From Escherichia coli (GTDB taxonomy: Bacteria > Pseudomonadota > Gammaproteobacteria > Enterobacterales > Enterobacteriaceae): a DNA stretch of 50,400 nucleotides. The stretch lies in the NCBI RefSeq assembly GCF_003334335.1, contig NZ_QOWQ01000034.1. One strand, written 5' to 3'. Made by a program: the position numbers and the translations under genes. The notes under the pieces were generated by a model, which was not told where the DNA came from, made no database searches, and saw only the letters and a list, made by a program, of their open reading frames with translations. Positions 49,522 through 50,400 of the stretch are shown here, piece after piece (position 1 is the stretch's first letter; each line of letters opens with the position of its first letter).

Positions 49522-50323
49522 TTACTGTTCTGCCTTTTTGGCACAAGGAAAGAGGATTTGCAGGCGGCTTTGCACCAGTTCGAGGGAGGCGGGTTCGCGC
49601 ATCTCCTGGCGCAAAAATCGCTCAATGGCCGGAAACATTTTCACCGCTTTGTCGACGCTGGCGTCGGCACCTGCCACATAGCCGCCGAGCGGGATCAGAG
49701 GTTTGATCTCCATATAGGCGGCATAGTTTTGCTTTAACGCGCGGGCGGATTGCTGATGTTCCAGGCTGGTGACCTGGTTCATGCAGCGGCTGATCGACTG
49801 GCCGATATCAATGGCCGGATAGTGCCCCGCTTCCGCCAGTTTGCGGGTTAATACGATATGCCCGTCCAGCACCGCGCGCGCAGTCGACAATCGGATCTTG
49901 CTGGTCGTCACCTTCCGCCAGCACGGTGTAGATGGCGGTCATCGATCCCGCGCTTTCGCTGTTGCCTGCGCTTTCGACCAGTTTGGGGATCATGCCGAAT
50001 GCCGATGGCGGATAACCTTTGGTGGCGGGCGGTTCGCCGAGCGAGAGGGCGATTTCCCGCTGCGCCATCGCGTAGCGGGTCAGGGAATCCACCAGCAGTA
50101 AGACGTGATGCCCGCGGTCGCGAAACCAGGCGGCGATGGAGTGGCACAGTTCGGTGGCTTTCAGACGCATCAGCGGCGATTCATCGGCAGGCGCGACGAC
50201 GACGATAGACTTTGCCAGCCCGTCCGCGCCCAGCGAGTGGTCGATAAACTCTTTCACTTCGCGCCCGCGTTCCCCAATCAGCCCAACCACCACGATATCG
50301 GCTTTGGTCTGGCGGGGGATCAT
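49522..50323 (-). pseudogene. lfiI: Flagellum-specific export ATPase FliI-like, disrupted (frameshift plus upstream stops)
   Basis: Two overlapping minus-strand ORFs (49808-50323 and 49522-49911) both match FliI; frame change in CGCGCGCGC tract at 49873-49881; stops in all three minus frames in 50324-50400. Confidence 0.75.
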
Positions 50324-50348
50324 CCCATAAGCGCTAACTTAAGGGTTG
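50324..50348 (-). repeat. 25-bp sequence CAACCCTTAAGTTAGCGCTTATGGG, copy 2 (inverted relative to copy 1 at 55-79)
   Basis: Read directly; abuts the point where the FliI-like reading frame is interrupted. Confidence 0.8.
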
Positions 50349-50400
50349 AACCATCTGAAGAATGCGACGCCTCGGTGCCTCGTTAAGACGATGCCTCGCG

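Follow-up and report, generated by a model that had tools for sequence, protein, structure and literature searches.

In this study, we observed that lfiI, the gene for the export ATPase of the Escherichia coli lateral flagellar system Flag-2, is very probably a pseudogene that has been split by IS186 and additionally frameshifted, and that this state was built up in three steps. The window, that is, the whole stretch of DNA analysed, is identical to the entire contig QOWQ01000034.1 (locus L034; 50,400 nt) of the draft assembly GCA_003334335.1. The first-pass annotation of the window had described lfiI as disrupted by a frameshift together with loss of the Walker A region. All the sequence features that it described are present, the disruption is borne out by both the IS186 split and the frameshift, and only the supposed loss of Walker A has to be given up. 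The features on which the argument is based are as follows.

50326-50400, minus strand: the last 75 nt (right end) of IS186, in the same orientation as lfiI; the body and the transposase gene lie beyond the contig end
50316-50325, minus strand: right copy, 10 bp, of the target site duplication (TSD), GGATGATCCC, lfiI codons 178-181
50317, minus strand: A>C substitution in codon 181, ACC>CCC (T181P), by which the target becomes a perfect GGGG-ATGATC-CCCC
49808-50323, minus strand: residual 171-aa ORF, lfiI codons 179-328 followed by 21 out-of-frame codons and a premature stop
49873-49881, minus strand: (GC)4G tract, site of the 2-bp deletion; intact alleles have (GC)5G, encoding C326-A-R-A-V330
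49522-49881, minus strand: C-terminal part of lfiI, codons ~327-445 and the natural TAA stop, in a frame that differs from that of the upstream part
49085-49519, minus strand: lfiJ (FliJ homologue, 144 aa), intact, its ATG 2 nt past the lfiI stop; annotated fliJ in relatives

The minus strand of 49522-50325 contains the 3' 60% of lfiI, a gene of the FliI family, in two frames. With the NCBIfam FliI equivalog NF005535.1, the 171-aa ORF matched profile positions 176-326 (E 4.8e-93, 312.5 bits) and the C-terminal piece positions 324-433 (E 4.2e-43, 147.9 bits), and since these are consecutive parts of one profile, the two pieces belong to the same gene, as the earlier reading of a FliI-like sequence in two frames had held. 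A 99.9%-identical relative has an intact allele (445 aa), which reaches 772 bits where the cut-off is 715, and intact LfiI (445 aa) aligns end to end with Salmonella FliI 5b0o. Neither window fragment reached the curated whole-protein cut-off of 715, because each is only a fragment, and the window thus carries a pseudogene of the FliI/YscN family rather than a functional member. The Walker B motif LLLVDS (residues 253-258) lies inside the 171-aa ORF, which stops at 49808-49810, 21 codons past the frame switch. The C-terminal piece, whose frame differs from that of the Walker B part, matches PF18269 (T3SS_ATPase_C) in a Logan gene call and ends in AEQ* at the natural stop, 49522-49524. Reading all three minus-strand frames disclosed no Walker A motif, GxxxxGK[ST], encoded within the window, and from 50326 upward stops occur in all three frames, the in-frame TAA being at 50339-50341, as had been described before. 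Plus-strand ORFs of 86-116 aa in 49841-50386 were rejected as unsupported, since the minus-strand FliI homology explains the region. Additionally, an Rfam scan of 48500-50400 gave no match, and a promoter and terminator scan stayed at background level.

The FliI homology ends at 50325 because IS186 inserted there. Its 23-bp terminal inverted repeat, CATAAGCGCTAACTTAAGGGTTG, matches exactly at 50326-50348, with a chance expectation of 0, and 50327-50400 (the 74 nt tested) are identical to positions 1268-1341 of the annotated K-12 IS186A. The IS186-end bases of the window are repeated in 3146 E. coli genomes, with 9704 occurrences altogether. At its right junction, the window has the sequence ...GCGCTTATG / GGATGATCCC / CCGCCAG, and in the complete genome TUM14664 and the ENA contig k141_56123 the same junction runs into a 370-aa IS4-like IS421/IS186 transposase (NF033592, 133 bits versus a cut-off of 115). 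The contig ends inside IS186, and the stops upstream of 50326 are IS sequence. On both sides the contig breaks within IS186, with 77 nt of the element at one end and 75 nt (+GG) at the other, which is what a de Bruijn assembly with k=77 would leave, and the window holds only the 3' fragment of lfiI because it is a whole short-read contig broken inside this element. The sister contig LYBF01000496.1 (GCA_002190205.1, 50,472 nt) was compared over 11.3 kb and showed no difference.

The IS186 copy at the other end of the window was noticed separately. Positions 1-77 are the reverse-complemented IS186 left end (junction 77/78), in the same orientation as the lfiI copy, and this element is inserted in the ecpA-ecpB intergenic stem-loop CAGCAGGGGTAGCCCCCCTGCT, upstream of ecpB (115-783). 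Other complete genomes also carry IS186 at ecpA-ecpB, three in the same and at least eight in the opposite orientation; this is a second IS186 hot spot, and insertion there may uncouple ecpA from ecpBCDE.

With reference to the literature, IS186 targets GGGG(N6/N7)CCCC and inserts in either orientation (PMC5009759), and the repeated hits on lfiI fit this element in view of its known target specificity and its use of both orientations. The left-junction product, in which the lfiI 5' part runs into IS186, was found with T181 on at least 16 further contigs, whose lafK-lfiI sequences form at least six haplotype groups with the element in the same orientation; over 5.2 kb these groups differ by 16-260 SNPs, and several are distinct even in the 1 kb adjoining the IS. 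Again, four contigs of at least two haplotypes harbor the element at this very nucleotide with its orientation reversed. Together with the P181 lineage, these haplotypes point to at least nine independent IS186 insertions at one lfiI site, and lfiI codons 178-181 are a recurrent IS186 hot spot. The insertion is rare, occurring in 1 of about 1276 complete genomes with the region (TUM14664), and the contig and sample counts are inflated by clonal sampling and do not represent rates. In the literature searched, nothing linked IS186 to Flag-2 or lfiI, and the assembly and run accessions were unmentioned.

The recurrent inactivation of lfiI could also be ascribed to selection against lateral flagella, through their cost or immune recognition, instead of neutral decay at a hot spot. 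This would agree with the many independent lfiI lesions (at least nine IS186 insertions, (GC)4 on two haplotypes, Q45*, and a frameshift in the G-run at codon 178), with the 29 other Flag-2 genes that are open in the window, and with the common loss of Flag-2 in E. coli (PMC6993521). However, the lesions are rare or private in complete genomes (1 of about 1276 for IS186, 2 of 764 for (GC)4, and 1 of 608 for Q45*), the sequence specificity of IS186 fully explains the IS events, and other Flag-2 genes of relatives have been hit too, with a stop in lfiH, a split lfiH and a lafK-lfiH deletion. We therefore consider selection quite unlikely and retain neutral decay at a hot spot. An extended proposal, that the hot spot and the slippage tracts (G4 at codon 178 and (GC)5 at codons 326-329) together form a preferred, selectively favoured off-switch for lateral flagella which keeps the rest of Flag-2, with T181P as a predisposing change, is a speculation to which we give only a small chance.

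The sequence beyond the window was searched for Walker A, which was found on a separate contig, separated from the 3' part by IS186. This contig of the same lineage, Logan SRR1815430_182 (locus L040), carries the left junction ...CTGCTGGG / GGATGATCCC / CATAAGCGC and ends ...GGCAGCGGCGTCGGGAAAAGCGTGCTGCTGGGGATGATCCC / CATAAGCGCTAACTTAAGGGTTGTG. It encodes LfiI residues 1-180, P181 and then residues derived from the IS186 left end, with the Walker A motif GSGVGKS intact at residues 168-174, and full-length lafK, lfiE, lfiF, lfiG and lfiH lie upstream of this 5' fragment. The left junction was read from the Logan assembly of SRR1815430, a run that may be another isolate than GCA_003334335.1; the run and the window match at four markers, namely the IS junction, the C in codon 181, (GC)4 and LfiJ A35, and the right-junction contig of the same run, SRR1815430_494 (L007), matches the window with 100% identity along 1717 nt. 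The left junction of the window lineage, with P181, occurs on nine contigs. The complete genome TUM14664 displays the fliI 5' fragment, the IS421/IS186 transposase gene and the fliI 3' fragment in succession, with the TSD GGATGATCAC. These observations indicate that Walker A is retained and only IS-separated, and that the event is probably a simple insertion with the 10-bp duplication on both sides; what had been taken for the loss of the motif in 50326-50400 is IS186 sequence.

Under simple insertion, the lfiH-side contig of the strain would end ...GGGGATGATCCC / CATAAGCGC, and the lfiI 5' fragment would end ...GTGCTGCTGGGGATGATCCC, followed by ~77 nt of the IS186 left end. The Logan contigs of the window lineage end 27 nt into the IS, compared with 28-29 nt, because the IS186 copy at ecpB has the same flank, CCC. 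The NCBI assemblies in the protein look-up index follow the deposited annotation, so that pseudogene fragments are absent there, and when genome_contigs and metagenome_contigs were scanned for the exact right-junction pattern, no match was found.

Since the window displays a single IS junction and no P-loop, it would also suit a deletion of the lfiI 5' part with Walker A, for example an IS186-mediated adjacent deletion after which the IS abuts unrelated DNA, and IS-mediated deletions are known, with 98 recombinations versus 758 insertions in mutation-accumulation lines (PMC5009759). This is very unlikely, because the left junction in SRR1815430 has codons 1-181, the matching 10-bp duplication and intact lafK-lfiH, the right-junction contig of that run is identical to the window while nine contigs carry the left junction, and both TUM14664 and an ENA assembly show the full simple insertion.

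The simple insertion was preceded and followed by smaller changes. In a first step, ACC>CCC (T181P), ten codons past the Walker A lysine, converted the near-consensus GGGGATGATCACCC (GGGG-ATGATC-ACCC) into a perfect IS186 target, GGGG(N6)CCCC. In a second step, IS186 (~1.34 kb, IS4 family) transposed in, duplicating GGATGATCCC and parting lfiI codons 1-181, with the N-terminal domain and the P-loop, from codons 178-445. In a third step, replication slippage in a sub-lineage to which the window belongs removed one unit of (GC)5 in codons 326-329, when the 3' fragment was already dead. The corresponding alleles were all found.

Common allele: T181, no IS186, (GC)5; most genomes, for example L033 and L036
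Substitution stage: P181, no IS186, (GC)5; APXN01000008.1 and JJMA01000025.1 (L045, L046)
Insertion stage: P181, IS186, (GC)5; SRR30938087_110 and SRR7230379_445 (L037, L043)
Deletion stage: P181, IS186, (GC)4; the window, LYBF01000496.1 (L035) and SRR1815430_494 (L007)

Among six aligned sequences, the window alone has C at codon 181 and the five relatives have A, and P181 was also found uninterrupted, without IS186, in two draft genomes. The C is present in both TSD copies, which places T181P before IS186, and since IS-bearing loci with (GC)5 exist, the loss of the GC unit came second, when lfiI was already dead. The second and third steps and their order are shown by these alleles, and we infer from the published target motif that T181P raised the probability of insertion. 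P181 without the IS could in principle be the product of precise excision rather than the ancestor. Moreover, all four allele combinations of lfiI codon 181 and lfiJ codon 35 exist among close relatives, indicating recombination or recurrent mutation within ~1 kb, so that the pedigree is not strictly linear. LfiJ A35 was rejected as a clean lineage marker because of its three alleles and its incomplete linkage to codon 181, and it serves as supporting evidence only; at this codon (window 49416), G, A and D were observed among near-identical haplotypes (L020, L045, L046, L033).

The frame switch lies within GACT-GCGCGCGCG-GTG, where the 171-aa ORF reads DPIVDCAR before it goes out of frame, and the tract at 49873-49881 falls inside the interval 49871-49884 that had been proposed for it. 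Intact alleles read GAC TGC GCG CGC GCG GTG, that is, D-C-A-R-A-V, in codons 325-330. Alignment of the window with the intact alleles of 720632 (445 aa, WP_001279403.1), TUM14664 and FORC_081 showed that exactly one GC unit is absent from the window, (GC)4 versus (GC)5, so the first-pass expectation that one more GC unit would restore the frame is met by the intact 445-aa alleles. Of the complete RefSeq E. coli genomes, 764 match this stretch; just two of them have (GC)4, and at least 99% keep the in-frame length. These two, 210221272 and OkiPb01694, are IS-free and both genes are annotated "frameshifted"; in lfiI-lfiJ, the window is separated by 15 alignment positions from OkiPb01694 and by two from 210221272, which differs at 83 positions further downstream. 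Their local haplotypes are unlike each other, and the occurrence of (GC)4 on differing haplotypes indicates that the tract slips recurrently but rarely. Tract lengths were tabulated over 25 loci; of the loci fetched, 22 had a readable tract, and each of these had four or five units.

It had been cautioned that the 2-bp deletion may be a sequencing or assembly error, in which case the 3' fragment would truly be in frame. Repeat tracts can indeed be miscalled, and (GC)4 is rare among complete genomes, but (GC)4, the IS junction and the C in codon 181 occur together in another NCBI assembly as well, whose contig LYBF01000496.1 has 100% identity over 11,258 nt, and (GC)4 recurs in Logan assemblies of at least four runs. 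Sister samples with the same IS junction, assembled in the same way, gave (GC)5, and a dinucleotide unit is rarely dropped by a short-read consensus. As the frameshift recurs in several independent assemblies, the caveat is largely removed, and an error is hardly to be expected. The least credible explanation takes the GC tract as a device for regulating LfiI production, either by phase variation as a contingency repeat or by programmed frameshifting. It can draw on the recurrent slippage, with one-unit contraction on at least two haplotypes, but is highly unlikely given a tract of just five units, the in-frame length in at least 99% of genomes, only lengths of five and four in the 22 readable loci, a shifted frame that stops after 21 codons, a contraction that followed the IS186 cut in the window lineage, when nothing was left to regulate, and (GC)4 in 2 of 764 genomes, where a contingency locus would have both lengths common and frequent reversible change in clones.

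The window contains, in order, ecpBCDE, paoABCD, thrW, proBA, phoE, crl, frsA, gpt, pepD, dinB and then lafU to lfgN, followed by a glycosylation island, lfiJ and lfiI. Apart from lfiI, the window has 29 Flag-2 genes, and every one of them is open. The lfiH-lfiI-lfiJ synteny was noticed in all relatives, and lfiH precedes the 5' fragment on the left-junction contig of SRR1815430. The closest complete genome, FORC_081 (L004), differs from the window by nine SNPs and one 2-bp indel over 36.9 kb. All nine SNPs lie inside Flag-2 (32658-50317), and the housekeeping genes on its flank are free of them over 19 kb; seven of the nine are non-synonymous, namely lfiI T181P, lfiJ G35A, glycosyltransferase A185E and P274A, lfgA R54L, lfgK P152S and lafZ L207P. 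This concentration may reflect relaxed constraint, the numbers being small. FORC_081 itself has lfiI Q45* (L004, 11602-11604), which was rejected as a lesion shared with the window lineage, being private to FORC_081 (1 of 608 complete genomes) and read through in the 5' fragment.

Other lesions were observed in relatives: a 1-bp deletion in a GGGG run at lfiI codon 178 in CP024266.1 (L020, 2990-3004; also L022), an internal stop in lfiH of 720632 (L003, 2767-3477), a split lfiH in JJMA01000025.1 (L046, 1309-1953), and a lafK-lfiH deletion in 210221272 (L002, 3181-3477). The glycosylation island (glycosyltransferase at 46125-48569; 45017-45946) is far more polymorphic than the adjoining flagellar genes, with 83-144 SNPs in ~3.7 kb between strains that have 2-15 lfiI-lfiJ differences, an excess which suggests a mosaic, recombining segment. 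A ~93-nt repeat is present between lfgJ and lfgK (36381-36472), and a 91%-identical inverted copy lies between lfiM and lafK (L004, 6569-6658). A 25-kb query containing this repeat matched ~38 places per E. coli genome, suggesting a dispersed repeat of REP/BIME- or ERIC-like kind. Within 25400-50326, most relatives have ~120 nt more than the window and FORC_081.

Outside Flag-2, thrW, a tRNA-Thr gene (CGT, 12887-12962), directly adjoins paoABCD (7568-12371) with no prophage between them. K-12 carries the CP4-6 prophage at thrW, and the window strain appears to be without it. The N-terminally truncated prfH (20855-21412) adjoins an RtcB remnant, both being annotated as pseudogenes in FORC_081 (L004, 40751-41474), and they match the rtcB-prfH remnant known from K-12. 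Again, the ecpC usher gene is annotated as frameshifted in E2865 (L044, 1433-1744) and is open in the window (809-3334).

Concerning function, no working LfiI can be made, because IS186 leaves the P-loop helix on one side and the remainder of the nucleotide-binding fold on the other. We infer that lfiJ is likely exposed to polarity from the IS and the frameshift. That the whole lateral system is silent or cryptic is a reasonable inference, to be read together with two published statements: the FliH/FliI ATPase ring of Salmonella is described as serving the efficiency of export without being strictly required for it (PMC5789064), and up to the E. coli W genome paper function had been demonstrated for none of the E. 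coli Flag-2 systems (PMC3032704), which leaves the baseline for Flag-2 function uncertain. Judged from its DNA, the window strain cannot make LfiI, and its Flag-2 would almost certainly be silent or severely impaired.

For annotation, the locus should be recorded as one IS-interrupted, frameshifted pseudogene rather than as a gene with a lost motif. It offers natural examples of a contig end in an IS mimicking gene truncation, of narrow IS186 specificity leading to the same insertion repeatedly in unrelated lineages, and of one point mutation making a perfect transposon target that is later hit. The processes involved, IS186 site specificity, short-repeat slippage and Flag-2 pseudogenisation, are all known, and the case adds one more data point on the piecemeal decay of Flag-2 and opens no new question. 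What is new is lfiI codons 178-181 as a recurrent IS186 hot spot and the motif-perfecting point mutation that preceded the hit.

Flag-2 loss is common in E. coli, and its decay by deletion, frameshift and transposition is well documented (PMC6993521). The cases of Ren et al. 2005, as they are relayed in PMC6993521 and PMC3032704, include an lfgC frameshift in strain 042, an lfhA-lafU deletion in K-12 and B, and transposase-disrupted lfgF and lfiG in Enterobacterales. The window resembles these in the locus, in the kinds of lesion (frameshift and IS) within an otherwise complete cluster, and in the outcome of a probably non-functional system; it differs in that the gene is the export ATPase lfiI and the element is IS186 at a site-specific hot spot. 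Compared with the Salmonella fliI and fliH-fliI nulls (PMC5789064), the flagellar type III export ATPase is likewise lost. However, export was measured in Salmonella and found to be strongly reduced, not abolished, with flhB/flhA suppressors rescuing it, whereas in the window lineage lfiH is still intact. The closest likeness of the site itself is to the K-12 IS186 hot spots menC and fimA (PMC5009759), with which it shares a 10-bp duplication composed of a 6-bp core and two bases on each side, a GGGG/CCCC palindromic flank, and repeated hits on one nucleotide in both orientations. In contrast to menC and fimA, the lfiI site lies in a gene absent from K-12, its common allele has an imperfect flank (ACCC), and in the window lineage a point mutation first perfected the motif.
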